Assembly (NCBI GenBank): GCA_002633005.1
Contig: NMRA01000147.1
Location: 768,868-832,867 of the forward strand
Source of the DNA: Phoronis australis
Taxonomy: Eukaryota; Animalia; Phoronida
Reading direction: 5' to 3'
DNA: 64,000 nucleotides
In this document: one piece after another, positions 34,030-62,409 of the stretch
Layout of the letters: every line of letters starts with the position of its first letter
Numbering within the stretch: the first letter of the stretch is position 1
The notes under the pieces: model-generated
The model's input: only the letters and a program-made list of their open reading frames with translations
The model's database searches: none
What the model was told of the DNA's origin: nothing
Translations under genes and position numbers: made by a program

Positions 34030-34289
34030 CAGGGGAGCTCGAACAAGCCCCCCATTTGGCGAAGTGGGAAAAAAGGTCCGCCTCAGAGAAACAAAAAGTC
34101 CGCCAAGTAGAAAACGACACAAAAGTCCACTAAAAAGGCAGGAACTACCGAAATTCGGCGAATGCACAATTCATAGCTCTGAACATACCTCGTTTTTTTC
34201 TTTTATTTATTTTTTCTTCTTTTTTTAATAAAAGCTCCACATTCTCAAAAAATTCGAGCCCCCCATTGCTTAGGCTGCGTGCGTGCACG
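34030..34289 (+). mobile_element. Degenerate copy of the CATGCGCGCACCCAG-TIR MITE family
   Basis: Core ccccatttggcgaagtgggaaaaaaggtccgcctcagagaaac...aaaattcgagcccc shared with 62168-62409. Confidence 0.7.
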
Positions 34290-36519: not shown

Positions 36520-37450
36520 ACCAAAAATTTCATTTTTAAGAAAGGTAAATCCATACCATAATAACACCTGGGTCGATTTTAATAAAACCTTTTTAAATGA
36601 AAATTTCATCAGTTACCTCAAAAAGATTGTTACGAATTTTCGGTTAGTCTTTTACTTTCCTTCATATGACAAATCAACTCACAAAGCGTAAGATATTTTT
36701 GTAAGAAATAGCAGTCGTATTCGTTTTTGTTACATTACGCAAAAACAAGGTCTTTATATCGAAAATCCTCATACAGTTTTTGAGAGTGATGATTGAATAT
36801 TAACTTTGGAAAGTTTCAGGGAAATCCACCAAGCCGGTTTCGAGAATTCGTGCTCTTAAGTTGAAATTAAGTCGATTTACCGAAAAAGACGATTAACTTG
36901 CTTTCGGTCGATGATATTTATACATGCCCTAACCATGTTTGCTATTTCAACATTTCAACATTCACTCGCAAAGTTGACTGAATTTGCAGTGCTTAATAAA
37001 CTTAATTTTCGCTAAAACGGTGAATTTTGTTACCGTCTCCAGACCGACAGGCGGGGTTAACTGTTGACCTACTTAAAAGTAGGTTAACAGGTCTTTGTTA
37101 TATACACCACTTGCCGCGAGACTGATATGAAAACAAGTACGAAATGGACAATCGAATCAGTTTTAAAGCGCATCGTGAGCATAAGATCGAAAGAGCGAAA
37201 TGTCAAATTACGTATCAAATTAATGAATTTGGTTGAGAATTTATCTCTTTTCACAACTTGTGTTCGTGAGCGCAAGTCACAGAGGCGTGCGGCTACTCGG
37301 AGCGAGCATTCGTTCTCAACAGTCGTATGCATGCAGACGCACAAGTCCCTCAGGATCAAAACTGTGTTTTGTCTTCTTTTCCCTGGCATCTTTCTAACAT
37401 ATGGACATCACACATCGCCGACTCAATATTATGGCTACTCTGTGAATTAA
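36520..37450 (+). repeat. Dispersed repeat shared with about 12560-13490
   Basis: Colinear similarity with the copy at 12.6-13.5 kb; boundaries approximate. Confidence 0.6.
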
Positions 37451-37705
37451 TCGACTGAGGGTACATACGGAGCTGCTCTATGCCTGCCGGGAGATTCGAT
37501 TTGAGTGACAGACTTTTAACCTTTGACCTCGGATAAGTAGTAAACAAATATCCACACGGTTGAGCGGTCCCAAGGTGGTTCCGTTAAATCTTTTTTTCTT
37601 TTTCGCTGCAGGCATTTGAAGTTACCCTAGCATAAAGATAAAGCATTTTGCTCGACATATGTGAAATATTATAAAAACGGCCAATAAGGTTTGAGATATC
37701 CTTAA

Positions 37706-38205
37706 AGGGGCCTGAAACGCGATAAACAGGCGAAACTGCAATTGAAAGTGGTTCTCTGCCACTGAAACAGAATTCAAACCACTCACCAGGTATTTTAGCG
37801 TTTGTTCGTAAAGATTTTTAATTTCTGTAGATATCAAAGCATTTTCTTTTAGTTTCAAATTTTAAAAAATCGATCTGTTATCTGCTCGCCACTTCGTCGA
37901 TATTTCTCTCACAAGGCACGCTCCTTATTTGGTATGGCAAGACATAGACGTACCGCGTTTCCTTATACGGAAAATGTGACCTTTGACCTCAAGCGACTTC
38001 AAGCAACTGACTGTGTGCGCACGCACGCATTTATCATAAGCGATAGAGTTTTTCCTTCGCGTATTACAAAAATCGTGAATTTTGTGTTTTTTCTGGAAAT
38101 TTCTTCAGAGGTGAAGCGAATTACACTGTACTAGACGTTGCGAGATGGCACTATCGTCAGTTAGCTTAAAAGATATTTTGACGAGCTTTTGTGTTCCATG
38201 CCTCT
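37706..38205 (+). mobile_element. TTAA-flanked MITE, Kolobok-like
   Basis: TTAA|AGGGGCCTGAAAC...GTTCCATGCCTCT|TTAA; second copy at 47065-47487. Confidence 0.75.
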
Positions 38206-39629
38206 TTAAATTCCGAATGTGTCATGAGCCAAAACTAATATGGGTACCAGGTCCATTTTTCATTTTGTCAAAGGTTCTTTGTGTTGTAGTGTAATAATTG
38301 ACCTGTTAGTGATGACAAGAGTCGACTATCCTTCAAGTCTACTGAGCAGTGATATACAAGTATCGCAACAGGGGATTGTCAGAAATGAGCTCAAAATGTC
38401 AACTTTGCAGTTTTCGAATCATTTCATTTTTCATAAAATTGCAAATGTAAAATCAAATGCTAATACGACAGGAAATATGAAACAGTCAGAACTTTTAACG
38501 TTCAAAAGTCCAAAGACAAATTCAGAACTTTTAAAATATTTCTCCGTTGTGAGATTGTTTTTCTAGCAAGCAAGGTTTTCACATATTTATTGATTGCTCA
38601 ACCATCTGCGCGTTCCGTTTATATAAATATCAAAATAAATATCATTTCTCGGAAGACTTACCTAAGTTAATTATTGCTTAGTGAAGTTGCCAAATATGTT
38701 TTTATGCAAGTGAAGACTAATCAGATGTTTTTATATATTTATATGTGTATAAGTGTATACACTCATGTATTGTTTCTCCTAAATATATTTACGTAACGCA
38801 TACCCTGCTGTTGTGTTGGTTCAGTACCTGGGCAGACAGTAATGACATCTACTGTATATACAATGTACTACCATTTCTTTTCTCAGGGATCTAATTCTTT
38901 TCTCATGAGGTATTTTTCTACCTTTCTCATACATCACAATGCGGCTCTTGCGGACTCATTTCTTCTTGATCTCTTGCACATATTGTATGTTGCTATGATA
39001 AATATGAAACACGGTCATTAATAGTTCGTTCATTATAATAGTTCGTACGCCATCCTTGAAACACGGTATTTCTCTCTAATAATTCGTACCGCAGGTGTAC
39101 GAGGAAAAACAGTTTTAGACGTATCTGAGTCAGTAAAAATAATTCATGCACCCATTGCTAACTATTCGGATAATCGGCACCCGTAGTTTGTTATACGACC
39201 GAAGTAGCAACGAGTTCTTACGAAGCGTCCTTGGAGAGCACTCGAATGTCAGCGTATGTTGTAATCAATCGACATAACGAGCTGCAGGTCGTATTTTGAC
39301 CAGCTCGATGAAGTCACAACATGCAACGTAGAACTTCCAACGTATGCGAGACGAGTTTTTAGTGTTGTCAGATATCTGGCAAGCATAAAGCAACTTGTCG
39401 TTATTTGCTTGTTGCCAAATCCAATTTAAAGAACCTTCTTGTCATTGGCTAGTAAAAATGGGTTAATTTAGAGACGATCTTTGGCGCGTTTCATTGACTA
39501 AGGGTTTTCGGCTGCTTTTGCAAATTTCCAGATGGGCCAATGTAAGCTTCGGACCACGGCATCACAGAACAGCGATAATTCTATTAATTCTTAAACTATC
39601 AATTTGCCAAACTTCGTGGTGGAAAAGCA

Positions 39630-42531
39630 TCGCCAGTCCGCCAGAGATATCGTTACGGACCTCACCAGTGCCTTCTACCAGATACCATTGGACCGTTCGT
39701 CTATGAAATACTGTGGCGTCTGCACTCCCTTTAAAGGGGTGCGTGTCTATACCCGTGCTGACATGGGTATGCCTGGCTCAGAAACTGCACTCGAAGAACT
39801 CATGTGTCGCGTCCTTGCAGACCTTCTTCAAGAGGGCAAAGTCGCTAGACTGGCTGATGATTTGTATTGCGGCGCGGATACCCCAGATGATCTCCTTACA
39901 ATATGGACCCGTGTACTCCAGGCCCTGGACAGGTGTAACCTCCATCTTTCACCTACCAAGACCGTCGTTTGCCCAAGGTCGACCACTGTCCTGGGGTGGA
40001 TTTGGTCGGATGGCAATATCTCCGCGAGCCCTCATCGCATAGCTACACTCTCGTCCTGCCCTAAACCTGATAATGTCCGTGGTTTACGTTCCTTCATTGG
40101 TGCCTACAAAGCTCTTGGTCGAGTCCTACCTGCGTGTTCCCAAGCTCTTGCACCGTTAGAAGAGTCAATTGCAGGCATGAAATCCCAGGATAAGGTACCA
40201 TGGAATGACAGTCTTCGTGATTCCTTCGATTGCGCCCAACAGCCTCTCAAGTCGCACAAGAGCATCCTGTTACCTCGACCCTCAGACCAATTGTGGATCG
40301 TCACGGATGGGTCACTAGTCATGGAATAGGGACGCTGTATGTCAGTACACGAGGGCACAAGCTGTGTCTTGCTGGGTTTTACATCGCCAAACTTCGCAAA
40401 CACCAAGTCACTTGGCTCCCGTGCGAGATTGACGCTCTATCTATAGCTGTTGCCGTCAAACACTTCAGTCCGTTTATTATCCAATCGAATCATCGGACTT
40501 GTCTCCTCACAGACAGCAAGCCGTGTGTCCAGGCAGTAGAGAAACTATGTAGAGGAGAATTCTCATCTAGTCCTCGTGTAACATAGTTTCTGTCTATTGT
40601 CAGCCGCTACCAGGTTCACTTGTCAACCCTAGCTGGTTCAGCAAACTTTCCGTCAGCCTTCGCGAGTCGCAACGCTCCCGACTGCAGTGACCTACGTTGT
40701 CAAGTATGTTCGTTTATCATCGCCACAGAAGATTCTGTCGTGAGACATATCAGCGTTGACGACATCCTGCAAGGATCGACTCGTCTCCCATTCACGACTC
40801 GCTCCACCTGGATTGCTACTCAGTTGGAATGTCCTGATCTACGACGTGTCCTTGCTCATCTGAAACAGGGCGCTCACCTTTCTAAGAAGCTCACTTCCTT
40901 ACCAGACGTGAAGCGTTACCTCAGGGTTACCACTATCTTCCGTGATGGTCTACTCAATGTACGCCGAAGCCAATCCCTGTTTGCTGCTTCCGAGGTGATT
41001 GTCGTGCCCCGGGCTGTTCTTGAAGGATTGCTTACTGCCATTCACATCAAGCTTGACCACCCTTCCAAGCATCAACTGAAGCTGGTTGTCAGTCGCCACT
41101 TCTACGCGTTAGATTTCGATAAAGCCATTGACCGGGTTTCTGAATCATGGCACGTATGTGCGTCCCTGAAAGCCTCTCCCTGTGCTTTTGTCCCACAATC
41201 GACTACTGACCCGCCAGAGGTTGCAGGCATTTGCTTCGCTGCAGATGTCTTGAAGCGTTCGCACCAGCTCATTCTTCGTGTGCGTGAAACGGTCACATTG
41301 TATTCTGCCACTTGTCTTATTGGCACTGAGACACACACTGTGCTCCGAGACACTCTAGTCCAACTCCTGTCAGAACTACTCCCACTTGATGGACCGTCGG
41401 CCATTGTCCGGGTCGATCCCGCCCCTGGGTTTCGTGCGCTCCAGAACGACAAGCTGTTACACTCAGTTGGCATACGTCTAGAAGTTGGTCGCGTCAAGAA
41501 CCCAAACAAGAACCCCGTTGCAGAAAAGGCAACTGCTGAACTTGAGAACGAGTTGTTGCGCCAGCAACCTGGAGGGGGTCCAGTTATGTAAGCTAGGTCT
41601 GAGCATCGTCACAGCCCGACTCAATTCCCGTCTTCGCTCTCGTGGTTTGTCATCTCGAGAAATGTGGTTCCAGCGAAATCAGTATACCAATGAACAACTC
41701 CCTACGTCTGACAGAGAAATGATCTTACAACAACACCGTGCCCGTACTGCAAATCATTCACACAGCGAAAGATTGCAGAATCCCCAGGGACGACACTGGC
41801 TTCGCCCTACCTCTTTGGCTGTAGTTGATCTAGTGTACTTCCACGCAGCCAAGATCGCGACAAGACAAAGGCTCGTGATCGATACTTGGTAGTGTCCATC
41901 GAGGACGATTGGTGTTATATCCGCAAGTTTGTTGGTTCGCAACTACGCTCCACATCATATAAAGTCAAACTGGATGATTACTACGTTGTGCCCGAGTTTT
42001 TCTCTCCGCGTGTCGAGTTGCCTTCACCAGCTCCGACGCTGGATGACGACGATGTATCGTACTCCACTGACACTCGTCCTGTGGGTATGCCGTCCGCCGA
42101 TTCTTCGTCTGTCACGTTGCCTCCTGATTTTCCGCTTCCGCCTGTTCCTCAGGCATTGTCGCTGCCTCCGGACGATGCCACCGTTTCTTCTAATGACGAC
42201 AACCCCTGCGATATACCCAATGCCCGCTCTCGCAGAGGCCAGCGACTGTTGTCGACCGAAACGTTCTCACCGCCCACCCTCGTATTTACAGGATTACGTA
42301 CTTAACTAAGGACAGTTAAAGTTTCCTCACGTTTATCAGCCTCCTTATTTGTTGTTAGTTTATGTTTTTGTGAAGAATAGAAGTCACGCCAGTCCGCCAG
42401 ATGTCGTTTCGCTGTAGTCAGCGCCCTCTGCTCTCTCTCTCTCTGCCGTCTGCCATTTTGTGCTGGTGTCGTTCATTCTATTTAGCTCTCAATAAACCTT
42501 AGTGTTTCGTCCACAGTTGTTCGTTCTGCAT
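39630..42531 (+). mobile_element. Internally deleted, decayed Gypsy/Ty3-like LTR retrotransposon
   Basis: RT-RNaseH-integrase order. An LTR-like segment (about 42369-42531, AATAAA at 42491) follows, and its cgccagtccgccaga also occurs at 39631. Possible 5-bp TSD AAGCA at 39625-39629 and 42532-42536. Confidence 0.85.
39646..42309 (+). pseudogene. pol: Disrupted pol (RT, RNase H, integrase)
   Basis: [28 protein letters not shown]; RNase H WIVTDGS..WLPCEI..LTDSKPC; integrase H..H zinc-finger relic, FAADV, VRVDPAPGF, NPVAEKA. Frameshifts near 40320, 41580 and 41860 and an in-frame TAG at 40584. Confidence 0.9.
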
Positions 42532-43762
42532 AAGCAATTGCCTTCTGGCGCATGTTTTTTCTTTCATATAATACGACTGGGTACAATTCTAATTCTTGAG
42601 GCACGCAATTTTCTTACGGGAATATTATTGCGCTGCCTAAGACGAGAGTGAGAACACCCGTGATCGGAAAGTGATGAAGATTTATAGGGCATAGTAGGAT
42701 AGTCGTCTTTGAACAACAGTTATGGTAGTGATCATTCAATATTAGGTTTAGGGTTAATTGACATAATCAAGTTATCCAGTAGAACTGTGTGCGCTGTTGA
42801 ATCATGTCCCAGCTGAAGTATGCAGAGGGTCAAGCGACCTTTAAAACACGATAGAGAATGCATGTAAAACGTGGTTTTGTTGCGAATGGAAACTTCGCCC
42901 CTTCTAAAAACGGCATTAAATCGTCAAAAAATAAAAAAAAATCATGCAACATGAATTGCAACAAAACTTCTAATACATTAAAAAGCAATCTGAAAATATC
43001 TTAATTATTGAGCAAATATTCTTCTTTTTAAAATGCCGCGACATGTGCCACGCACATCACCTTTTATTTAAAAATCAACATTTATGGCTCTGGTGACTTA
43101 CAATCCACGCAGTCAGTTTGACCCATTCTTGGAATAATAGATTTGGTATGAGTTTCAATCGGGTGTCTAGTGCAGTGGACCGAATTGTTTAGCCTGCGGA
43201 CGCTTATGATGAAAACTGGTTGGTGTGCCATCTGCAATATTTTTTCATCAAGCAAACCTCGTGCAGGCGTTCACTTCAGCTGGAAAACGTAAATTCAACT
43301 CAGAAATCCAATAACCAATTACCTTTTACTACGTTATGACGCTCGAAAGTGCACGGTGACTTTTGTCTGATTTATGTTCCTTTGATATATATCTAAGGTT
43401 TATACACCATGACCCGTTACTTGTAAATTGAAACACCTGTTCTAGAAGCAAACGATTCAAATCAATTTAAACTGTTTACCCGAGTTACTTAAGGTTATAT
43501 ATCATCCAATGTCTGACAAAAGTACTAAATGTCTGTACAGCAGCTCAAATATCTTTCAAATCTTAGTCACGAGACAATGTTTTTTTCCTAAAATATCGAT
43601 CCTTGTTGAGGTCCGTTAAGATTAAAAGTTTCGACAGTCAAATTGTCGGTTATCTCAGGTACCGTCCTATATTTTTACTTGATTATACTTGTATTTATGT
43701 TGTATTGTACGGTGGTCCTCAATGAAGCGACGTTTACCTTTGAGGATCTCTGGGGCTTATAC

Positions 43763-43828
43763 TCACACACGCACACAGGCGCGCTACACACACGCACGCA
43801 CGCACGCAGGCACACACACACACACACA
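43763..43828. repeat. (CA)n/(CACG)n microsatellite
   Basis: Seen directly. Confidence 0.9.
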
Positions 43829-44441
43829 TTCAACTGTGTTTTTCTTGTATTTTTGTAATTGTTATCAAAGCTAATAAAAACATTGTTTTCTTCTCTTTAT
43901 CATTCCGTGAAAAACAGTCCAAGATGTACGTAAATACATAGTAGAAAACAGAGACGAATGTTCTGACCCAGTACGTCCCTTTTCACCCATTAATTCCATT
44001 TTAACCCAATATGTTAATTTTGACCTAATACGTCCATTTTCACCTGTTGGGCTCATTCTCACCCGTTAAATCGATTTTTAACCGTTAAATGTGGTTTTGA
44101 TACATCTTTCTAGCTATTGAGTTAATTCCCGAACAAGATCTAAAAATCTGTCGCAGAATGTTGCTTGAACAGCTGGTAAAGTGTTGATCTGATAATTGTG
44201 ACCTTCTGAACCGGAGTGTCGCTTGATCACATGATGCTGCGCGTGCATAAAGTCAATAGTGTTCTAAATAGGTGTTTTCATTAACACAGACATTTATCGG
44301 CGATTGTTTACTTTCACAAAATCACCAACAACTCGAGTTTTTGGATCTGTATACTTGGACGTATGGAGTCATGTTCCGTGCTAAATGAAATGAGGTAGAA
44401 ACGTAAAATAGGTAGAAAATAACTAGATTGAACCCGTTTAG

Positions 44442-44664
44442 CATGCGCGCACCCAGCCTAATAAGTGGGGGGCTCGAACTTTTGGGAATGTGGTCCTTTT
44501 ACTAAAAAAATAAAAAGAGATACGTTCAGGGCTGTGAATTGTGCGTTCGCCGAACTTTGGTAGTTCCTGCTTTTCTAGTGGACTTTTGTCTCGTTTTCTC
44601 GGACTTTTTGATTCTCTGAGGCGGACCTTTTTGCCCACTTCGCCAAATGCCCCCCCTGGGTGCC
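44442..44664 (-). mobile_element. Copy of the CATGCGCGCACCCAG-TIR MITE family
   Basis: Starts catgcgcgcacccagccta; internal part is the reverse complement of 62168-62409; other TIR degenerate. Confidence 0.75.
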
Positions 44665-44882
44665 ACAGATTTCTGTGCTTTGTAATGGCTGACAACTTCG
44701 TAATTGGGTGGTGCAATGTTCGACTAGTTGGGCTGACCGGCCACACAGTCATGTATGTGACGAGAACTATCAAGCACCTATAACACGAAATACAGTTGGA
44801 TGCCAAACGTTGGCGCCACGACTCGACAAAATCTAGTTTGCCATTATAAACTCGATGTGTTCTGATTTTCAGCCTCGAAACG

Positions 44883-44951
44883 ATGAAGACTTCGTTCTTG
44901 ATGGTTCTGCTCGTCACTGTTGCCCTCATTTGTGTCATCGAGTCGAAATCA
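44883..44951 (+). CDS. Secreted cysteine-rich peptide precursor, coding exon 1 (signal peptide MKTSFLMVLLVTVALICVIES-KS)
   Basis: Classic n/h/c signal peptide ending at a phase-0 donor TCA|gtaagt; TATAAA at 44845 and a ttttcag at 44866-44872 upstream. Confidence 0.75.
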
Positions 44952-47064
44952 GTAAGTATTTCTAAATCTCCATTATCCAGTTATCACCATCCCCACCATC
45001 ACTCTCTCGCAGTCACCATCACCGCCAATGACTTCATTTATCATAGTCCTCATTACCATCGCCACAGCTCCTATAACCGCTCTATGAATATTCAATAACG
45101 ATTAAAAAAAAATATTGATGAGGTGTAGATAAAGACTTCACTCACGACTGAAGTATTCCGACATTACAATTATAGAAAGTGAAACTTGAAAAGAGTGGGT
45201 GATTACGCTTGATAAATGCACAGGCACTCGGATTTCCAGATCACTCATAACCATAAGAAACATATGTTTTCTTATATGTAGTAGTGAGTGACGTCATTTG
45301 CGATGCATATAAATGGAATCAAAACTGTGACGTGATCACAAATTGCACGTAAACAAAGTGATTGACGTAATCATGAACGCATTTAGACACATGCCCCTAC
45401 ACTCCACAGTTCCAGTTAGACCTGTGATGTGTATTTGGAATATTGATTGATTTGAAATATAAGTCATTGAGAGAGTTATCAAAGTGAAACGACTTTACGG
45501 ACACATTTCCTATCTGAGCAAAGTGTGAGTTCTAGTCAGCTTTGCTGCAAAGCTGTATACCAAATATATTTTGACGATAGTCTTCACACAACTAACTGGC
45601 TGGCTAAGTTCTAGTATGATTCTATTGTCAGAAGTATGCGCACTTGCGCTGTGAGGACACAGTTTCAGCCAGTGTACCATCAGTGTTAACACATTTTTTC
45701 AGCATTTACATAATGAAAAATATGCTTATAAAAAGGACTGTGGTGCATGGGAAAAGACATAAAGACCATGAGCCTTTGCGAAAGCCGTGTGAGTCCACCC
45801 AACCAATGACTCTGTGGAGGAGACAGTTTGCCAAAAATCGTAAAGCAGTCGTTGTTTTACGATATTGACTCCTTTCCAAATATTCGAATATTTTTGTTTA
45901 AATAACAGATTGTTCAATTTGAACAATGTCAATTTTACGTTGTGTTTGTGACATTTTGGTATTACAGCGCGTCACATCAAAATCTTCACAATCACGTCAT
46001 ATTAAACAATAGGTAAATCCAAGTGTAGACGCTAGGTTGGCCTAACGGAAAATTTAAACTCATTCATGTTATTAAAGAAGACGGTTCTCGCCTTGGGTTA
46101 TTCACATTAACAAAACTCTTTTCACAATCCCAACAACATTGCAAAATCGCCATCTAATGAATCGTGGTCATGAAATTGGCGTACTTTTGCGAAGGCCAGT
46201 TTGAGCATTCTCAGTGACGCTGCTTGGTGTAAAATAGGTAAAAAACTAAATCCCCGGTGACCGCCTAAATTTCATCTCGATTTCGAAAAAAACGCGATGA
46301 AATATAAAAGAAAAAACGAACGATGTAATTTTTGCGTGGAAGCCACAACGCAAAAAATTGAGGTACTCAAACTCTAGAAAAAATTCTAACCCCCTACCTT
46401 TGCCGCTGTGAAGAAATCAGTAAACCGATAAATATAATGTAGTAGTCAGATTTAATCCGTTTTCAAAAGAAATTTAATTACTAAGTTAATTAGAGGTGCT
46501 CTCATTAAAATATAAAGCTGACCGTAATGCAACGAATTTTTAATCCTTTTGCAAACGAATTAAAATCTGTTTCCACAAGGATTTCAGTCATTATTTTGAT
46601 TAGAGATGGCTTTTCAGTAATCCATGTTCATTTCACATTTTTGCCAGAGATTTAAACGGCTGTAACAAAATAGTATTTGGTGACCCGCACATTCTTGTCG
46701 GTATGCAGTAGGTAAAGACCAAAATACAAAATATGAAAATTTAAAAAAGTCTGCGATAAATTAAAACTCTGTCGAACCCCCTTAATTTTCAAACTTGGGG
46801 TTATGTAATCATCTCAAGATGGGTAATGACCAATAGTAGAATTATCTTGAAAAACCTGGATTTAGACAATTTTTTTGATTTCGGAATTTCGGATTTTTGT
46901 GTACTGCATACCTCTTTCCCACCGATTCCTTCTCTGCAGTAAAACTCACCATTCAGCCTCCGAATTCGCTACTGTACTATTTGAAATTGGAATTTTTTGA
47001 GCGGTCGCAGTCACCGTCTACACATGAACTCTGGCATTTCATGGAATACTGTTGTTGAAGTTAA

Positions 47065-47487
47065 AGAGGCCTGAAACGTGATAGACAGACTAAATTGCAA
47101 TATTGAAAGTGGTTCTCTGTCACTGAAACAGAATTCAGCCTGCTCACTAAGTATTTTAAGGTTCGTTTGTAAAGATTTCTAATTTTTGTTATTTCTATTA
47201 ATATCAAAGCATTTTCTTTCAGTTTCAAATTTCAAAAAACAATCTGTCAACTGCTAACCACGTCATCAATTTTTCTCCTACAAATCAAAGCACGTCTCCT
47301 TATTTGGCATGGCAAAACATAGACGTAGCACATTTCGCTTAAATGGAAACCATGTGGTAATCGCAAAGTTTTTCCTTCAAAAATCGTGAATTTTGTGATT
47401 TTTCCGCACAGGGAAAATGAATTACTCAGTACTAGACGTTAGGAGATGGCATTTATTGTTTGACGAGCTTTTGCGTTCCATGCCTCT
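47065..47487 (+). mobile_element. TTAA-flanked MITE, Kolobok-like (second copy)
   Basis: TTAA|AGAGGCCTGAAAC...GTTCCATGCCTCT|TTAA; homologous to 37706-38205. Confidence 0.75.
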
Positions 47488-48227
47488 TTAAAGATATCAT
47501 TAGATCGCAATTTACACGGTATACTAGTTTGCTTGTCCATACCTGTACACTGCTGCCACCTGTGGGAAAACAATAATACCAGATTCCGTATCCTGGCTCC
47601 TACGGAGTTTTTGTTTTGCTTGATGGCACCATCAATCGATTACATGTACACATGATGAAAATTTAATTAAAAAAATACATGCAATCTTTGGAGTCCATTG
47701 CGAGATTTTTAACACCGGGGATAGCGCAGCTTGGGCGTTACTCAGTCAACCAAATCTCTCAGAGTCTAAAGACGTGGCTAATCAACATAAAACAGTAAAA
47801 AATATTGACATTCATACTTTTTTCTACATTCATAGTAAAACACGCTTCAGTTTGAANTTTAAAGATATCATTAGATCGCAATTTACACGGTATACTAGTT
47901 TGCTTGTCCATACCTGTACACTGCTGCCACCTGTGGGAAAACAATAATACCAGATTCCGTATCCTGGCTCCTACGGAGTTTTTGTTTTGCTTGATGGCAC
48001 CATCAATCGATTACATGTACACATGATGAAAATTTAATTAAAAAAATACATGCAATCTTTGGAGTCCATGGCGAGATTTTTAACACCGGGGATAGCGCAG
48101 CTTGGGCGTTACTCAGTCAACCAAATCTCTCAGAGTCTAAAGACGTGGCTAATCAACATAAAACAGTAAAAAATATTGACATTCATACTTTTTTCTCCAT
48201 TCATAGTAAAACACGCTTCAGTTTGAA
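47487..48227. repeat. 370-bp tandem duplication across a single 'n'
   Basis: 47487-47856 matches 47858-48227; n at 47857. Confidence 0.9.
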
Positions 48228-48887
48228 ACCTGAAATGCAACCTTACTTCATCCGCCATAAAGTCAAAGTTGTTAAGTCAAGTAAATCAAGTTTGCGATTG
48301 TGAATCATCCCGATAAACACTCAATGGAGTCAATTCTGTCCATGGTGATATATGAATGCAAACTCGCCTTCATGAAACAAAATAATCAGACAGGTTCTAC
48401 CTCACTGAAAACGCAAACCAGGGCGCTGCATGCGGCTTTTGATTTGCTTCTGAGAAAAAAAATAAACACCGAGAAGTGCTCGCCACCAGAGCACAAATTC
48501 CACACTGGCTATAACCGCGGGTTATAACACACCTTTCCGATTGGGTTCGGACGACTAACAGGGGTTAGAATCAAGTACTTGGAAACTACACGACTCCAAG
48601 GAACTATTATGGCTCATGACTGGTAACAAAATGAAGTTGAGTAACTTGGTCACGAGGACTAGGCCTCCAAACAAGGACGTTGACTGGTACCTTTATCGCT
48701 CTCGCGTTATATTTTTATCAAATCCACGTTGCCATCCACTCAGTAACAGTCGCCTTTTTAACTCACTGTCCGTGTATAGTGAACTGGTGTTAGATCCTAG
48801 CAAATGAGTGCACACTGTACACTTATCTTCGTATTTTGCACCTTTTACATGTAAGATACGTGGAATAATTCATTCAATACAGATTAG

Positions 48888-48940
48888 TAACAAACAAACA
48901 AACAAACAAACAAACAAACAAACAAACAAACAAACAAACA
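48888..48940. repeat. (AAAC)n microsatellite
   Basis: Seen directly. Confidence 0.95.
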
Positions 48941-49786
48941 GTGTTTCATGTATTTTCTACAGTCACGCCCCCTATAAGGCTGGTCAAATCACATGACTTT
49001 CCACATAAAGAAGTCAATACAGTCAGGAACTTACTTGACTGTATTTTCTGCTGGGACGAAACCGACCGCGCCATGAAGACTGGAAACACTTAAGCTAAAG
49101 CTACGGTGTTTTTGGCTAGCCTCTGCCGTTTTCGGTTGCTAACCGAAGTTCAAAACAAGAATATTTTTATGACCTGGAGAAATACAAGTGAATTTTCCTA
49201 TTATTAAAGAAGAATTGTCGGTTATACGATAGAAATACGCATTTTGGGGTATTGTTGGATAGGACAGGCTTCTTGAAGTTATTAACTTTGACCAGAGCAA
49301 CAAATTTCTTGGTGCTTTTGTCATCACAAATCGTCAATTCTCGGTGTTGTCTGTGAGACATTCGCTGAAATCAAGACCGGTCACTTTACCGCTTAGGTAC
49401 GCATAAAATAAGTTCCGGCAGCAGGGCGTTTCACTGCTACCGCACCGCAGAGGTTGCAGGTTCGGATAGGCGCGCACCTCAGAAAATCACCTCGCCATAA
49501 TGCTACTTTAAAACCACGAAACGCTGGGTACACGTTTCCAGGAGATACTAAGTTTCATTTTGACAGATAAGATACACGTTTGTTTTTCTGAGTAGGTTTT
49601 TTTGTTTCACTTTTCTATTTAAAACGAAACCGAAACTCTGCACCAAAAGCCAACACCAAACTGAGACTGGCGCAATAAGGTATGAACCTTTGAAGCCCAA
49701 CTAATCGTCTGGGATCAAGTCCAAACCTCAACCCTTCCCCGCTTACTGATAATGCTATCGCGTCTGTTATTTGTTACAATTTTTAG

Positions 49787-49924
49787 GTGAATAAACGCCA
49801 TCTTCCTGTACCCTTGAACTTGGACGCAGATTGCGAGGTCAAATGTGACCCTTCTATGGAAGGCAAGCTATGCGGTGAGGACGAATCATCCGGTGAATGT
49901 ATCGACGGCTGTTGTAAAACGTAA
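49787..49924 (+). CDS. Secreted cysteine-rich peptide precursor, coding exon 2 (VNKR-HLPVPLNLDADCEVKCDPSMEGKLCGEDESSGECIDGCCKT*)
   Basis: Strong acceptor ttacaatttttag|GTG in phase 0, KR site, six Cys, TAA, then a gtgagt donor 3 nt after the stop. Confidence 0.75.
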   Translation: MNKRHLPVPLNLDADCEVKCDPSMEGKLCGEDESSGECIDGCCKT

Positions 49925-52900
49925 ACGGTGAGTGCGTATAGGAATGTTTGTATGCAAGTATAAATACTCGTGTAAACTCTTTTTCATTAAAAAACTCACA
50001 GAAACGATTTGACAGCCAATTCTAACCTAGCCCATACTGTGTCCCAAATGGTGATCTTTAACACGTCTATTAGTCTACTTCGTGTGAGATGTCTGTAAAA
50101 ATGGAAGTGCAATCAAGTCTGTAATTTACTGTTCCTAATATGTTAGTGATATCTCTCGATCGATGAAATTCATATTTCGGTATTCTAATCTAGTTGGTGA
50201 AAATAAAGAAAAGGATGACTTTAAAAGGGCGCAATCGGCTTTACAGTCGAAAAACGGGCATTTTGAAGGTTATTTTTGAATAGGATTGACTTCTTCAAGT
50301 TTATAAGTTTGCCAGTCTTAGTCAACCGATTGAAATCAATCGAGTGAGTCTTAAAAGTTTTGGACTGTCAATAACGAAAAGTGTCATTCGTTTAATCAAT
50401 TCTGCATATTGGAAAGATTAATGATATACAAAAGGCCAAATCTATTTTGAAAATACAATAACTAATCTACATGTAACTCAACTTTACAGTAGTTTCATTA
50501 AAATAAACGAGAGAAAATTTTGTGGGTAGCCTTTCCTCGAACGAAGGCAATGATAAGCGGGCACGTAATTTTGAGATTGCATATCTCGTCGCGATTGCAA
50601 GACTTAGTGGAACGCTTTCAATTTCCAAATAGATCATTTCAATGGAATAATACTTTACTAGGAAAAAACGTTTTCTTTTCAGAACATGCACGAGGCGCGA
50701 AGAAAAGTCTTGGAAGCAGATGCCCACACGTTCTAAACTACAGTTCAAGCCATTTACAAGACCTCGACTGGGTTTTTGTTTAACCAGAAAATCCAATCAA
50801 CGTTTTGCCAGATGTCTAATTCAAACCTGCGACAATAGTGAATAAACAACGAAGTAACACCGCTGATCATTCTCGTTCTAGTATTGTTAGATAGAACACA
50901 ACTGCACCAAACTCGGATACAATTCGTCGCCAAGGTGACAATTTCATTTTTCATCACGTTTCATGCCGATAGTATAGCTGCGGTACAAAATTGAACAATC
51001 AAATATCAATGTTTCTCGGAAACGACAAGTAAGTAAATGTCTAATTATCTCATACACGGGCGGCGCAGCACTGAAATAAGTGGGCCCCCTACGGTGCGCC
51101 ACCCATGTCATCGTATATTAAACTGATGTACTGAAATATTATATCATTGAGCACGAAATCCCAACTTATTCTCCGACAAGAATAATGAAACAAGAACAAC
51201 ATTCTTCTAAAGTAAATGTCACGAACAAAAAACGATTATTACTTTTTACACACATTAAAAGTTCGTACATTCCCTGTGCGACCTTTTCTCGAAAGTTTCG
51301 TGGAATGAGCAAAAGAAATAGCAGGAGCTCTCACAAAAACATTGTTCAATTAATTTCTTGATAGATAATCGTCACGTACTTTTAAAAAGGTAATGACCAC
51401 CATGATGGATTTGGAGAAAAGACTGCAGACCAAGTTATGCCTCACTTTGGTTTTTATTTCTTGAAATTTTATAACAGCCCGTTCGATATAATGCTCTCCA
51501 ATTTCGATTTATTGTGTACATTGCAACAAATACATGTAAACCATACGGAACAATATCGAGTATTTTCGTAGACAAGCTGATCCGAATGATATGGGCCAGA
51601 TAACGTAGTACGGAAAGTGACGAAGTGTTGCATCGAATGACCGTGACCGAGCTTACCTTGTTATTGTTGAACAATGATGTTGACGTCACGCCAACAGTTA
51701 AAGTAAAGATTTAAGATGTGAGGAGTTTGATGAAACGGACAATATGTACCTCCAATAGGTTTTCGGTAACGATTTTACCGTTAGCGGTCTTAAGTGCCGT
51801 CCACACACAGACTTACCCTAAAACAAGTTACTCCTGGAACTAGTTGACGCTAGATTTGAGTGCTGTGTGGGGCGCAACATAACCAACTTTTGACTGAGCG
51901 TGCGCAAACCGCAATAGACCACTTGGGAATATCAAACATTAGACCTTCAAGTGGAAAAATGCGTAAACTAACGGATGGTCTATAGCTCTGCGCGTGGAAA
52001 AACTCTTACAAACCTCAACTGACTTCCGCCATGCAGTATCAATGTAACGTTTCGTAGATCAAGCTTATTGGGAGAAAAATGAAATCACCCAAGAGCATTC
52101 AGAAACACGCGAAAGAGTATTTCATGAGAACAGTGCTCGAGACTTTACCAGCGTAACATTTTTATCATTTATCAATCATATACAAACACGTAAATATACA
52201 TTAATTCGAATAAATAATAATAATAATAATAATGTATACATACCATGCATTAACGACGCAAGGGTTACTTACAGTAATAATTTCTTAATACGAATTACAA
52301 TGAAATAAAAATATTAAAACACACGTGTCCATTTGACCACTGTCAACTAAATATATTTTTCTATATTGCAATACCCGGAATTCCTTCTAGTGACGTCATG
52401 CATTTAAAGCTCTGAATATCTACAAAACCATAGAATTTAACTCAGTAAAAGTACATATTTTCTGAAAGAAGAAAGCATACAGAATTTGATTTTTGACTTT
52501 ATACCAATCTGCAATCACTTGAGTCACGTGACCATGGATTTTAGCAAAATTTAACAAAAAATAACATGATAACATGACATGATAACATGACCAAAGTCCA
52601 TTTGATAGAAGTGTCGACGATAACATCTCAAAGCATTACATTTTTCTAAAAGGTCGTTTTGTTTTCATTTTGTACTACTTTTGGGTTTTTCTTATTTTTT
52701 GAGCCCTCGTGAAAATGTGTAATATTTCAAAAAATAATTCCTATCAGCGTTTGGTAGAATAATGCATAAAGCATACAATGAATATGAAACTTACATACGA
52801 ATCAATCAGCCATTTACAAGATATGATGTTTGGGGTTAGTCAAATTTGGCCATTTTTCTAGTGTCCTATATAACCTTATAGCCCTACGCATACACAAAAT

Positions 52901-53279
52901 TGTTGTAAGGGAAATTTATTGAAATCAAAAAAAGTTGCAGTCAGTGTCTACTAAGCCGTAAACATATCTATGACATCTCAGTCATTCCAGCGTTTCATAA
53001 ATATTGATTCCTTTTAATTAATGAATTATACCAACGTCGTTGATTCACAGGGGAATCGCAATCTGAGATTTTTGTCAAAAACAAAATAAATAAATTGATG
53101 TAGACTTCCTTCCAGAATTCATTTTTAATTTAGCTAGTGTGTCAAAGTTGTCATCGCCAAAACAGGATACATAGTAGAACAAGGGCAACTTGAAATGCGC
53201 CCACGAATGCACCGCAAACGGTGCGCTTCTAGGATTATTTGTTTCATAAAAAGAGCCACTACATGGCGCAAAAATGTCC

Positions 53280-54423
53280 AATCCATCTGAAAATGGGAAC
53301 ATGCTATCGTTTCTTTAATAGAAAGCTATTTACTAAATTTTATAAAAATCTGCCAAGGAGCTTCAGAGAAACAAAGGAAAACGGAAAAAAATGAAATTGC
53401 CACTAGGGGGCACAGCGTTCATCAGATCCGCCTGAAAGACGTCGTCGTCTGTTGTTAGCTTCACATAAATACAAGTACTAAATTTAAAAAAGATCCTGCA
53501 GTGTGTTTAGGAGATGCAGCTATGGGCGCAAAACAAGACAAAACAAAACTACCACCAGGAGGCGACACAGTAGTCATATTCCTTATCATCATCCGTTCTC
53601 TTCATACTGAGAACATATACTTTAATTTTCAAAATAATCCTTAGAGTGGTTTGGTTGATCAAGGGGCGGACGCCAAAAAACAGAGTCAAAAACAGGAAAA
53701 ATGGCCCCTAGATGGCGCAGAGTACCTCGATTCCATCCATTCTCACCAAATAAGTGCTTATATTTCAAATTTTCTGAAAATCCGTTGAAGACCTTTGAAG
53801 ATACATAGGTAAACGTAAAAAAACTAAAATTGCCTCTAGGGGACACACTGGTAGTCAGATCTGTCCCAAAAGTTGTTGTCATCCATTGTCAACATCATGT
53901 AAATACACTTGCTAAATTTAGCAAAGATCCTGCAAACGGTTTAGGAGATACAGCCATGGGTGCAAAAAAACTGCCACTAGGAGGCGCACAGTAGTCGAAA
54001 TCGTCTGAAAATCATCGTCAGCTTCTTTCGTAGTAAGAACATACATGCCAATTTTCGCAATCATCCTTAGAGCGGCTTGGTTGATAGAGGGGTAGACGCC
54101 AAAAACAGACTAAAAAACAGTAAAAACGGATAGCTTCGTCTCACTAATAGATGCCTATATACCAAATTTTATGAAAGTACGTTGAGGACATTTGAAGATA
54201 CATAGGTAAACGCAAAAAACTATAATTGCCAATAGGGTGCACAGCGATAGTCCGATCCGTCCGAAAGTTCGCCCATGCCTGAATCCATGAAAGAAACATA
54301 AGTGCAAAATTTCATGAACGTACGGTACGTCAAAGGGTTTTGGAGATAGAGCAGCCGATGCCGGACGCCTGACGGACGGAGATGACGGCATAATGTGTCC
54401 ACATATAAATATGTGGGCGTATA
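53280..54423 (+). repeat. Long copy of the CCACTAGGGGGC tandem-subunit repeat family
   Basis: Units with tgccactagggggcac, ccaccaggaggcga, cccctagatggcgc, ccactaggaggcgc; ends gacggacggagatgacggcataatgtgtcc...gtgggcgtataa; homologous to 1-1058. Left boundary approximate. Confidence 0.7.
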
Positions 54424-54915
54424 AAATGAGACACCATGTTCACCTCCCATGGTCTGTAGCTCTGCACAAGGAAAACCAGCATGAGGTTTTATATTCAGGC
54501 GATTCACGCTGTGCAGTATCAGGGTAGCCTTCCAATGACCAGGCGTGCGTTCAGTAACGCTAGGACCTGCGCTAGGACTTAGCTAAAATCTAGTGAAAGT
54601 CACGCGTTCTCATTTAAAATACAAGGCAATATCTCACGTAATCTCACGAAGTCTTGCTTTTAAGCGAGGTCCTAGTATCATTGAACGGGAGGCAGGTTTC
54701 GTGCAAGAAAAGCGTGAGCATACAAGACCATATATGACGGCCACTGAGGTGATTGGTTGGTAAGTTAGAATGTTGAATTAAGATAGAATTCATGAATTAT
54801 GGGATTGAATCCATTGTTTCCACTCGATGAAAGATTTCTCACCGCAAATGCCTGCCAGTGTTTCGGTTCGGGACTGCAAACTCGGGACATTGGCGTTCTG
54901 AGAACGCCGACCAGG

Positions 54916-55804
54916 CACAGGCACCTTTAAGTAGCCCTCTACAATATAACATAATAAAGAGAAAGGTACACAACTGACATTCAATATGGACGTCTGCCGG
55001 CCACTTCCGGAGTAACCCAAGCACGTCAAATCTGAGAGTAATTTCACTCAAACATTTTATCTGCGACAGCAACACGTTCATTGCTTCTATTTGTTCACAT
55101 CGAAACCAATAAATATCATAAATACCTCCAGATCTTCCTAGTTCAATCCTCAACATTCACGACAAATCGAAAATCAAGAAGGCCTCATGTAAGTTTCGTC
55201 TAATGCGCATGCTCATAAGGCCCCTCGCGACATCTTGAGAGCGCTTACATCAACTAAAAACAGCAACATTCAGCGAAGAGGCTCTTGACAGTAATTTACA
55301 TAATTTATATGTTACTCTATGAGCACGCTGATTGGGTACAGCAAAAATAGGTCAAACTTTCAAGAGGCCACAGACAACCCTGCTTTTTCACATGCTCATG
55401 CGAGGTAGGACGACATATTCGTAAATTACTGTCAAGAGCCTCTTCGCTGAATGTTGCTGTTTTTAGTTGATGTAAGCGCTCTCAAGATGTCGCGAGGGGC
55501 CTTATGAGCATGCGCATTAGACGAAACTTACATGAGGCCTTCTTGATTTTCGATTTGTCGTGAATGTTGAGGATTGAACTAGGAAGATCTGGAGGTATTT
55601 ATGATATTTATTGGTTTCGATGTGAACAAATAGAAGCAATGAACGTGTTGCTGTCGCAGATAAAATGTTTGAGTGAAATTACTCTCAGATTTGACGTGCT
55701 TGGGTTACTCCGGAAGTGGCCGGCAGACGTCCATATTGAATGTCAGTTGTGTACCTTTCTCTTTATTATGTTATATTGTAGAGGGCTACTTAAAGGTGCC
55801 TGTG
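54916..55804. mobile_element. Foldback non-autonomous DNA transposon with 384-bp TIRs and 7-bp TSD (P-superfamily-like)
   Basis: 54916-55299 is the reverse complement of 55421-55804 (121-bp spacer); termini CACAGG...CCTGTG; GACCAGG directly flanks both ends (54909-54915, 55805-55811). Confidence 0.88.
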
Positions 55805-55893
55805 GACCAGGTAAGCGTAATGATCACAAACAGCCACCTTGGTTGTGAACTCGCCGAAGGTCTTCTGTAGCATAATGGAGTGTTCGATCACAG

Positions 55894-56391
55894 TTAGCAT
55901 TTCGATGAAACCGCATGCAATAATTTATGAAGAAAATTTTTCTTTGGTGGCTTTTCCAAATTAATAGTTTCGCCTTTTCCCTCCTCGTTTCTTCCGTATT
56001 CGTATGACTTAACCTTCAAAGCTATGTCGTCAAACATTTGTTTTATTTTATCCTTGTCTTTGTAACTCGTGTAGTATATCCCCGAAAATCGGCGCCCAGT
56101 TTCGAAGACAAACCTCTCTATATCGTCCGTTGTGACGTAATCACGATGTCCGTCTCTTGAACGTTGTTTCAATTTTTCTACTTTGTCTTGATTTGTCACC
56201 ACCAGGAAAAGCTGGGTCGGTTGATCTTCGCACTCACGACATCGGACGGCGTCCAACCAAAACCCGTTCAGATCATTAAGCGTCTCTCTGTTGGTGGGGT
56301 CGAACACTAAGACAGCGGCTGCAGTATCATGGTAATAAGAATTGGTCAAAGATCTCATACGTTCCATGCCTGCAGTATCCCACAGGTAGAT
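55894..56391 (-). CDS. Rab-like small GTPase, coding exon 2
   Basis: atttcag acceptor then IYLWDTAGMERMRSLTNSYYHDTAAAVLVFD...VVTNQDK...YTSYK...HAVSSKC*. Confidence 0.9.
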   Translation of the reverse strand: MYLWDTAGMERMRSLTNSYYHDTAAAVLVFDPTNRETLNDLNGFWLDAVRCRECEDQPTQLFLVVTNQDKVEKLKQRSRDGHRDYVTTDDIERFVFETGRRFSGIYYTSYKDKDKIKQMFDDIALKVKSYEYGRNEEGKGETINLEKPPKKNFLHKLLHAVSSKC

Positions 56392-58592
56392 CTGAAATGG
56401 ATGTTTTGAGACGTCAAATTAAAGATGAATATTTAAACGTGAAGGTTATTTGTCGACTTCATTGTGAACAAACGGTCGGAAGAGCGTGATCGTTAGCAAC
56501 GTTGTCGACAACTTCGTTCAGGACCGGTTGCATAAAAGTCTTGGATTGTACCAATAACGTCGCATTATCACACCGTTTCTATTGTTGGAATTTGACGTCA
56601 AGTAACCAGGTCAGGGATGGTTCCGTAGGCACTAGCCACTCGTGAGAAAAACTAAGTGCTCACGTTTCTCATGTGATTGGGCGCTTAGAGTAAGATTATG
56701 TGCTATTTGCTCGCCAGTGGCAGGCTACGGAACGAGTTTTGGATGAGATCTCCAAACAAGGCCCAGTTCATTCCGTAGAACACGTGTCTTGCGACAAAAA
56801 TAAGATCACCAAAGACTATGCAAATTCACGACTGTCTGAAAGGAGATTGTTTCAGTCGTCAGTACGTTCGGGACCTTATTAACGTATAGCAAAATGGCCG
56901 TCACTGGACTAATATATGTCTACGAGGCAGGAATGTTGGAATTATGCTCCATAAGCCAAGATTTTTCGATACATTTCGAGTGCCTTTTGTGTAGGGAACG
57001 CGCCCTAGTCCAGTTTAGCACCATTTGATGCCGCAAGACCTTGTCTAAGCAGCATGCAAGCTCATGGTAACATTTTCCCATCAGCTAACTGTATTAGTTT
57101 TTTCTTGAACCACCAGCCTCTTCTACTCACTTTTTTCCTCATGAACTGCAGTTCTTTTATGTTTATGAGTAATTAAAACTAAGTTGGCATAATTCATGTA
57201 ATCCGTTTGCTACGACAGCAAACAACTGTGGCTTACGATGAATTAAGTGTATGAACAGAGGTGACAGAGAAGTTCGTGAGAAAAAATTGTGTTGATCAGA
57301 AAAAAAGCTTTTACGCTCCATTCTGGGATGGACAATGAAAAATGTAAATTAGTCATTGTCTTGCCTGAAAGATATCCGTCAGTAATACCCCACTTCATTG
57401 GCTTTTTTGACTAGTATCAAAGACGTTAAGACGACTTATCTTATTGCCCGCCGCCATTATTGTGTCAGACCGTGACGACGTCTCTACGATCCATGAATGT
57501 CCGCCAGAGCAGGCCGTTCAATGGGATTTTGCTAGGAGATTTGTCTCCCTCTCTACGGTCTCTGCCGTTATCAAGAATAGAGTACAAGTCGCTCAGCCAG
57601 CTCCCTTTATTGTCGGTTAGACACGCAACCTGTCTGTAAGTATTCACAGTCACGGGAATAAACGCAGCAACTTTAGGAAATCAGTTTACCCTAAACTTGA
57701 ATATCAACATGTTATCTTTGGTAATAACTGCCATGTACAAAAATACAGTGCGACGGTGTGCTTTTCACCGTACAATGGATAAATTCCTTGAAGTCCGTTT
57801 ATCGACATTTCTATATTTTTGACAACAATCCTGTCTCGTCGTGACAGATCAATTCATAAGCTCATTGCGAATTAGCTCGGCATGCAGACATGGCATTTGT
57901 GTACGAGATTTCGACGCCGGCACCGGTTTCTCGGTGTCTCATTAACTGGGAAGTTGAATGGAACTAATTTGCATACAACATGGAGTAAACTGCACTTGTG
58001 AACAACGTCGATTATCCATTGTGTTTTTAAGTGGCGTCATTACAGGGCAGATTTCTTTAATTTGGGAATAGAAATTTTTGTGAAGGACACATGTATGGAA
58101 CAGTAAATGTTTATTTCGTCATCCAGGTAAGTGGAACATTGTAAATTTCTTCAAAAACCTTTGAATACTAAAACTGATAGGTAAAAGCCCACATGTATGT
58201 GTGGAGCTGTTTTCTGACAGATGCCAGTAAGCCACGAATGTAGCTCGAAACCGGTTACCCGCAAAGAAAGTTCATTCAATACTCATATTTTATTTCCACG
58301 ACTTAAAGATAACCTCCAGCGACTAAAACACCTTTTTGACACCGGAAATACAAGTATTTTTGATAAAAAATGCTTTTTGTTTTTTTTCATACCACAGAAT
58401 GCAATTAATTGCGACGTAAATTACTCAGCCCATAATTCGTAGCCCCTTCTAGAGCCCCTGAGATACTCTCAACCAATCAGCGTAATGTGGTACATAGGAG
58501 ATCATTGTGCCAACGAAATTTCCCGAAGACTCACTGCGCAACAGTTGAAAGTCATTTTTGGATGCAGGCTAGGTATCGGTCTCTGGGCTAAA

Positions 58593-58980
58593 ATGCCACG
58601 TTACGTGGCGTACAGGTGCAGCAATGTAAGCGACAATGACATATATTTGGACAACTTCCCCGCCGATCCCGCCTTTATGATGTGCCGTGCACAGAATAAA
58701 TTCTTATCCAAAACAAGGAAGAACTGCATGCACGCACCCAGCGTTCGATATGGGGGGGGGCTCGAAAAAAAACGGGAGCACCTCTGTGAATTGCGCGTTT
58801 GCCCTTATTTACTGGGCTTTTGTCCCATTTTCTCGGACTTTTTGTCTCTCAGGGCGGACCTTTATGCCCACTTTGCCAATTGGTTGAGCCGCCCGAGCCC
58901 CGCCCTGGGTGCGCGCATGAACTGGCGAAAAAATTCTAAGAGCAGCAAAATCTGTTTTAGCCTTGATGCAAAGCTGTATA
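58593..58980 (+). pseudogene. THAP zinc-finger relic interrupted by a MITE
   Basis: Removing 58727-58919 and one TSD gives MPRYVAYRCSNVSDNDIYLDNFPADP...KTRKNWRKNSKSSKICFS, a THAP-like pattern with lost Cys/His ligands. Confidence 0.6.
58727..58919 (-). mobile_element. CATGCGCGCACCCAG-TIR MITE with 5-bp TSD
   Basis: AACTG|catgcacgcacccag...ctgggtgcgcgcatg|AACTG. Confidence 0.85.
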
Positions 58981-62167: not shown

Positions 62168-62409
62168 CATGCGCGCACCCAGGGGGGGGGGGCTCGAGGG
62201 GCCCCCATTTGGCGAAGTGGGCTAAAAGATCCGCCTCAGAGAAACCAAAAATCTAAGAAAAATAGACAAAAGTCCACTAAAAAGGCGCGAACGCATAATT
62301 CATAGCTCTAAACGTGGTACCCCTTGTTATACCCCGTTTTGTTTGTTAGTAAAAGGTCCCCATTGTCAAAAATTCGAGCCCCCTATATTTTAGGCTGGGT
62401 GCGCGCATG
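62168..62409 (+). mobile_element. CATGCGCGCACCCAG-TIR MITE with 5-bp TSD
   Basis: TACTC|catgcgcgcacccag...ctgggtgcgcgcatg|TACTC. Confidence 0.88.

Follow-up and report, generated by a model that had tools for sequence, protein, structure and literature searches.

Trissin, an arthropod neuropeptide, carries six cysteines in the order C-C-C-C-CC behind a dibasic site, the acidic attractin of Aplysia is a water-borne pheromone, and molluscs are well known to secrete acidic matrix peptides. In Mytilus, the lineage-restricted MgCRP-I peptides combine a signal peptide, a pro-region, a Lys-Arg site and six cysteines (PMC4558851), and beta-defensin-like peptides, big defensins and panusin, also found in molluscs, are dibasic pre-pro-peptides with six cysteines ending in CC (PMC7203481). 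Papers are cited by PubMed Central number. Here we describe a spliced gene with a related layout in another lophotrochozoan, the phoronid Phoronis australis. It lies in a 64,000-nt stretch of contig NMRA01000147.1 (assembly GCA_002633005.1, positions 768,868 to 832,867, forward strand), referred to below as the window, and all coordinates count from its first letter. The predicted product is an acidic peptide of 41 residues that is not assignable to any family in the libraries searched.

RNA evidence for a four-exon gene

The gene is real: it is transcribed and spliced, and its four exons (26, 79, 141 and 180 nt, 426 nt in total) span 15.7 kb of the + strand (Table 1). The evidence comes from four runs with the same species label, of which X2, X3 and X4 are raw stranded reads and X1 is a set of contigs whose RNA nature is a guess; about 18 to 19 of every 100 reads in each raw run were used for alignment. 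An earlier note, made from the letters of this DNA alone, had proposed a two-exon gene with a phase-0 splice at 44951^49787 and a further non-coding 3' exon. That GT..AG joint is crossed by 89 (56 + 33), 204 (114 + 90) and 153 (95 + 58) reads in X2, X3 and X4, respectively, and by two X1 contigs. Two alleles are present at 44951, both encoding Ser, and the junction reads are split between them. The 3' exon was borne out as well, by the GT..AG joint 49927^50683, which occurs in 60 (34 + 26), 121 (63 + 58) and 63 (33 + 30) reads of the same runs and in one X1 contig that extends to 50862. In all reads over both joints the first mate lies on the - strand. The mate bias is reversed in a Rab-like frame located on the - strand (17.8 vs 1.8, 15.2 vs 1.9 and 16.8 vs 0 in the bin 56010-56676), so the peptide transcript comes from the + strand.

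The gene is longer at its 5' end than the earlier note had supposed, a non-coding exon at 35175-35200 having been missed. Upstream of 44873, 119 X3 reads have loose 5' ends with a median length of 22 nt and an agreement of 0.98, and these match a single place in the window, 35175-35200, with one mismatch; none of 100 shuffles gave a match. The joint between exons 1 and 2 is thus known from loose read ends in X3 and not as a formal joint, 35175-35200 lying outside the aligned stretches. A CCAAT motif and a TATAAG motif, 80 and 45 nt 5' of exon 1, stand where they would suit it as the first exon. An acceptor-like ...TTACAG lies directly 5' of exon 1, and given this sequence there may be a still earlier exon, 5' of 35175.

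Downstream of its acceptor at 44872, exon 2 contains the ATG at 44883, which is the first of the mRNA, since no other precedes it within the observed 5' untranslated region (UTR). It opens 23 codons that run to 44951, and a GTAAGT donor follows at 44952. From the acceptor ...TTTTTAG at 49786, 45 open codons (49787-49921) lead to a TAA at 49922-49924 and a GTGAGT donor at 49928; a minor donor for the same intron, 4 nt downstream, is seen in 4, 1 and 8 reads. The X1 contig that reaches into exon 4 has its terminus at 50862, 16 nt beyond the AATAAA. Intron 2, which the earlier note described as filled with repeats, fits that description only in part: its repeats are a tandem duplication of 371 nt, a run of (AACA)13 and several patches covered by dispersed-repeat reads.

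Comparison with shuffled sequence indicates which features of the gene are unusual. The window contains no second instance of the exact cysteine spacing, and none arose in 60 order-4 Markov shuffles; a loose version of it is expected 0.03 times per shuffled window. An exon from ATG to donor with a hydrophobic core is expected 0.1 times, and exon 2 is the sole real case. Acceptor-led frames with at least six cysteines in any spacing are not rare (4.15 per shuffled window vs 5 in the real one), and the gene is therefore proven by its RNA junctions and not by sequence alone.

Table 1 Features of the peptide gene, in window coordinates
Feature	Position	Strand	Basis
CCAAT (35095) and TATAAG (35130), promoter-like	35095-35135	+	Motif scan; short motifs, weak alone
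Exon 1, non-coding, at least 26 nt, GTAAGT donor at 3' end	35175-35200	+	5' loose read ends
Intron 1, 9672 nt, GT..AG	35201-44872	+	Sequence and loose read ends
Exon 2, 10 nt of 5' UTR and codons 1-23	44873-44951	+	Sequence and RNA reads
Signal peptide (predicted), codons 1-21	44883-44945	+	Cut site by -3/-1 rule, other sites possible
Intron 2, 4835 nt, phase 0, GT..AG	44952-49786	+	Junction reads in X2-X4 (3/3 raw runs) and X1 contigs
Exon 3, codons 24-68, stop and 3 nt of 3' UTR	49787-49927	+	Sequence and RNA reads
Lys-Arg dibasic site, end of pro-piece of about 6 residues	49793-49798	+	Sequence; processing inferred
Mature peptide (predicted), 41 residues	49799-49921	+	Sequence; AlphaFold2 single-sequence models
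Intron 3, 755 nt, GT..AG, within the 3' UTR	49928-50682	+	Junction reads
Exon 4, non-coding, AATAAA at 50841-50846	50683-50862	+	X1 contig and raw-read coverage

Repeat and retroelement sequences lie within and around the gene. Intron 1 contains a decayed remnant of a long terminal repeat (LTR) retroelement on the + strand (39595-42305), recognised by its reverse transcriptase (Pfam RVT_1, E 3e-12); its frames are interrupted by stops and shifts, and its read coverage is low. A dispersed element of about 200-250 nt has at least four copies in the window (44444-44649, 34032-34287, 58784-58919 and 62168-62409), one of them 230 nt 5' of the signal-peptide exon. A scan of 34000-58000 against Rfam gave no matches.

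Predicted precursor and mature peptide

The precursor has 68 residues, comprising a signal-like core, a Lys-Arg site and a C-terminal peptide of 41 residues; the layout of signal, short pro-piece, dibasic site and six cysteines described in the earlier note is present in the sequence. The N-terminus has Lys at position 2 and a 17-residue uncharged run with a peak 11-residue hydropathy of 3.3, and the -3/-1 rule permits signal cuts after residues 14, 17, 21 (Ser21, the site taken in the earlier note) and 23. By this rule-based reading, the combination of basic N-terminus, uncharged core and permitted cut sites predicts a signal peptide. The Lys-Arg site lacks an Arg at P4 and so has no furin consensus.

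Recomputation of the mature peptide returned the framework C-x3-C-x8-C-x8-C-x3-CC and the 10 acidic residues vs 3 Lys given in the earlier note. The cysteines stand at positions 12, 16, 25, 34, 38 and 39, with 11 residues before the first of them, and are likely to form three disulfides. Apart from the 10 Asp/Glu and 3 Lys there is 1 His, with no Arg and no Phe, Trp or Tyr, and five of the acidic residues fall within 10 residues between and just after Cys3 and Cys4. The peptide has an isoelectric point (pI) of 4.1, a charge of about -7 at pH 7 and a mass of about 4.34 kDa (4335.8 Da fully oxidised), and no C-terminal Gly amidation signal. AlphaFold2, run without an alignment, gave two models with a mean predicted local distance difference test (pLDDT) of 73 and 75 and a predicted template modelling score (pTM) of 0.43-0.45; three of five models of the mature peptide reach a pLDDT of 73-75, with a compact cysteine core. 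In the predicted layout, the N-terminal arm is flexible, the chain makes a short helical turn, and a C-terminal beta-hairpin runs through Cys4-Cys6.

Search for relatives

Homologues were sought in protein, profile and fold collections, and the outcome applies to these; it does not extend to contig collections of metagenome, viral or prokaryote origin. With exon 3 as the query, no Pfam family and no NCBIfam entry matched, no candidate of length 24-79 was found in a word-indexed search of 5.8 billion clustered proteins, and the ESM Atlas gave no usable match. None of the 177,635 PDB sequences matched at E 10. Fold comparison with Foldseek returned nothing at E 0.001 for either model (best rows E 6-9, template modelling score at most 0.37), and VIA-align returned none of 48,161 chains at Z of at least 2. 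Two matches at E of at most 0.001 from a HMMER search of 1.84 billion representatives were rejected, as their scores were summed over long repeats and the cysteine pattern was absent. These sequence and fold searches are weak for a single-sequence query of only 41-45 residues, so that their blank outcome demonstrates neither novelty nor a new fold.

The cysteine spacing, in any of six notations, and five sequence motifs were likewise not found in the literature searched, which excluded subscription journals and figures and took in supplements to the extent of one file. The peptide is thus an orphan in the libraries and papers searched and is not assignable to any family, in agreement with the earlier note, whose author had recognised none. 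Its pre-pro layout with six cysteines is of a known kind, and its cysteine spacing was not found in these libraries and papers.

Expression and copy number

The transcript is present at a moderate-to-high level in X2, X3 and X4, where the depth over exon 3 is 120, 226 and 150, corresponding by a rough estimate to 65, 138 and 94 reads per kilobase per million reads. The bin over the adjoining Rab-like exon has a depth of 15-18, lower by a factor of approximately 7-15. In X1, the peptide contig has a word depth of 4692 vs 0 in the Rab bin. Word depth being a poor measure and X1 being RNA by guess, this is a hint that the transcript may be enriched in one tissue or stage.

Read accounting indicates that the gene is apparently single-copy, with no close expressed paralogue, an approach that is blind to diverged or unexpressed copies. 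The depth over exon 3 expected in X1 from one contig plus the two junction contigs, at 80% likeness, agrees with that seen (1918.6 vs 1918.6 and 1621.5 vs 1621.4), the sum being less clean over exon 2. Coverage in X2-X4 did not change when the threshold of read likeness was dropped from 90 to 80%. The depth over exon 2 in these runs, by hand arithmetic about 82, 200 and 139, is not above the junction counts, and few reads can therefore come from any paralogue with a common signal exon. No paralogue or cluster of similar peptides was found within the 64-kb window. Among the variants listed, all are silent or lie in UTRs (44951, 49926, 50811, 50831 and one base of exon 1).

Possible functions of the peptide

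We tentatively favour, with a probability of roughly 0.35, the reading that the gene product is an anionic mini-protein, abundant and exocrine, which binds an extracellular target protein and serves as a defence, feeding or enzyme-inhibiting effector. The spliced mRNA of about 430 nt would yield the 68-residue product, whose basic N-terminus and 17-residue uncharged core would bring it into the endoplasmic reticulum, where the signal would be cut. A convertase would then cut after Lys-Arg and free the 41-residue peptide, and the six cysteines would be oxidised to three disulfides, as is usual in the secretory pathway. The peptide would leave a gland or secretory epithelium and may then bind a target protein outside the cell at a basic surface. 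A charge of -7 and the lack of any aromatic residue make membrane lysis unlikely and binding to a protein or cation likelier, and the high transcript level favours an exocrine product.

Several observations weigh against such an effector. Toxin and defence peptides usually occur in duplicated, fast-evolving families, and many channel toxins use aromatic and Arg residues, which this peptide lacks; read accounting gave no close expressed paralogue. The apparent single copy, taken with the lack of aromatic residues and Arg, weighs against a classical toxin family. Of the functions suggested in the earlier note on account of the negative charge (signal, inhibitor or toxin), the acidity stands and the toxin option loses ground for these same reasons. 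The MgCRP-I family, by comparison, has 67 loci, and its synthetic peptides are reported to have shown no toxic or antimicrobial activity (PMC4558851), so that a layout in common with it is no proof of an effector role. No homologue, target or tissue label was found that would connect the peptide with one.

The same features can be read in other ways. A hormone, a neuropeptide-like signal or a water-borne pheromone, stored in granules, cut by a convertase of the PC1/PC2 type and acting on a host receptor, is possible, if on balance rather unlikely. The dibasic site without a furin consensus, the apparent single copy and the listed variants, all silent or in UTRs, are consistent with such a signal; the absence of an amidation signal is not, and conserved hormones would more often show cross-phylum matches, of which none was found. 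Small disulfide-rich water-borne pheromones are known (PMC9229436), and lophotrochozoans have orphan peptide G protein-coupled receptors, including orthologues of the trissin receptor (PMC8557429). Against this, eight of 11 short motifs of the peptide were absent from the approximately 1,300 nemertean, brachiopod and phoronid precursors of the supplement of PMC8557429; the other three match, among the passages listed, neurophysins, insulin-like peptides and an unrelated protein, and exact matching of this kind misses diverged orthologues. We regard it as a long shot that the peptide founds an undescribed lophotrochozoan family with a distinct three-disulfide fold and that, as a single-copy anionic pheromone or hormone, it is the missing ligand for one of the orphan peptide receptors of the clade. 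A role in an extracellular material such as shell, tube, cement, egg coat or mucus, in which the carboxylates of the peptide would bind calcium or other metals and no protein target would be involved, is unlikely but deserves mention. The acidic residues (10 of 41, five of them around Cys3-Cys4), the lack of aromatics, the abundant transcript and a host clade of shell and tube builders would all suit it, but there is no low-complexity repeat and no known matrix domain, and a convertase-type site with a compact predicted core is commoner in ligands.

Three further readings have still less in their favour. The cysteine order ending in CC would admit an immune peptide of the beta-defensin/big-defensin fold (C-C-C-C-CC) that has diverged and become anionic, which we consider distinctly improbable: in searches that are weak for so short a query, no match to Pfam, to PDB at E 10 or to a solved defensin fold was obtained, and the loop lengths are unlike those familiar from defensins. 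Mollusc big defensins likewise have a pre-pro layout that includes a dibasic site, and the first exon of their genes is non-coding, as here, but their hydrophobic N-terminal domain is absent from this peptide, which is acidic where their C-terminal domain is cationic (PMC7203481). Derivation from a truncated and re-wired neurophysin-like module, suggested by the match of the motif search to two neurophysin precursors (PMC8557429), is very improbable. With that of Lottia the peptide has in common an unbroken stretch of six residues around Cys3, a Gly-x-Cys after it and a Gly ahead of the CC. A search with five-letter terms in 3.9 million characters is expected to give about one chance match per term, a hand alignment with BLOSUM62 scores about 46 raw (22 bits, E about 30), the loops are 8 and 3 vs 7 and 5, the cysteines after the CC pair are absent, and neither Pfam nor PDB gave a neurophysin match; the likeness is a weak lead only. 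Finally, a spliced non-coding RNA with an incidental frame could be argued from the lack of a homologue and from the four or so acceptor-led six-cysteine frames that arise by chance per window. It is scarcely credible for a transcript whose first ATG opens a signal-like exon (0.1 expected) that is spliced in frame to an exon with Lys-Arg and six cysteines, and whose sole coding variant among those listed is silent.

Whichever of these readings holds, the gene is well expressed and of a size that would escape annotation based on length, and it encodes a small disulfide scaffold that can be synthesised. Defence and toxin peptides of molluscs and worms are mostly cationic, and as an effector the peptide would add an anionic scaffold to them; as a signal, it would be a candidate ligand for the orphan peptide receptors of lophotrochozoans. 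Its significance is tempered by the many orphan cysteine-rich secreted peptides in invertebrate transcriptomes.

Neighbouring genes and repeats

Two protein-coding neighbours were recognised in the window. An LRRC71-like gene lies on the - strand at 3700-17700, with six exon stretches located by tblastn (3707-11078); a Lys-rich frame at about 17506-17679 may be its first coding exon. One LRRC71-like exon gave 40 matches, the named ones all from molluscs, annelids, a nemertean and a bryozoan, with 55-69% identity over 272 columns and scallops and abalone at the top. We constructed a phylogenetic tree from 29 of the 40 matches, leaving out 11 near-duplicates and short pieces, and it gave no supported position for the phoronid sequence. 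Downstream of the peptide gene, on the - strand, a transcribed frame at 55894-56418 encodes a divergent GTPase of the Rab/Ras family (Pfam Ras, E 4e-14). Its word-indexed protein search gave 0 of 41 candidates at E 0.001, and it is possibly a lineage-specific Rab.

Just downstream of the Rab-like frame lies a perfect inverted repeat with arms of 384 nt (54916-55299 and 55421-55804) and a spacer of 121 nt. Between 16 and 18 reads per run skip 54908-55805 with non-canonical ends, which may reflect an element-free allele or a hairpin artefact. At 53190-54630, a repeat family with coverage of up to about 330x, mostly on one strand and with many loose ends, is probably a transcribed dispersed element. 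Near-identical tandem duplications occur at 19886-23463 (1.8 kb, 94%), 24354-25230 (438 nt, 98%) and 47487-48227 (371 nt, 99%). The 3 N letters of the window fall in frames within these duplications, where they appear as X, so the duplications may be joins of uncollapsed haplotypes at assembly gaps.

Comparison with known systems

Trissin differs from the phoronid peptide in spacing and length, and no trissin sequence match was found in our searches. The orthologues of its receptor in lophotrochozoans are orphans (PMC8557429). Neurophysin consists of two domains behind a nonapeptide, compared with 41 residues, six cysteines and no nonapeptide here. The likeness to the beginning of the second domain, as seen in the conopressin/neurophysin of Lottia, is a short motif around Cys3 followed by Gly-x-Cys...CC and is not significant (PMC8557429).

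The loops of the conotoxin as25a are much shorter than those of the phoronid peptide. This conotoxin, of framework XXV, has the identical order C-C-C-C-CC (PMC4278219), an order that does not amount to homology, and no sequence match was found in our searches. Framework XXV belongs to cone snails, and the LRRC71 sequence of the window falls outside the clade of Littorina, Nucella and Babylonia (support 96). Big defensins join a hydrophobic N-terminal domain to a cationic C-terminal one, in place of which the phoronid peptide has 11 residues before Cys1 and a charge of -7 (PMC7203481).

The MgCRP-I genes of Mytilus resemble the gene described here in having four exons, the first of them non-coding (PMC4558851). 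They differ in the order of their cysteines and in charge (C-C-CC-C-C with a basic pI of 8-9.5, compared with C-C-C-C-CC and a pI of 4.1) and in the length of the pro-region (about 15 residues compared with about 6). Their coding introns are in phases 1 and 2, compared with a single phase-0 coding intron and an intron in the 3' UTR in the phoronid gene. MgCRP-I comprises at least 67 loci expressed at very low levels (PMC4558851), in contrast to a well-expressed gene for which no close paralogue was seen.

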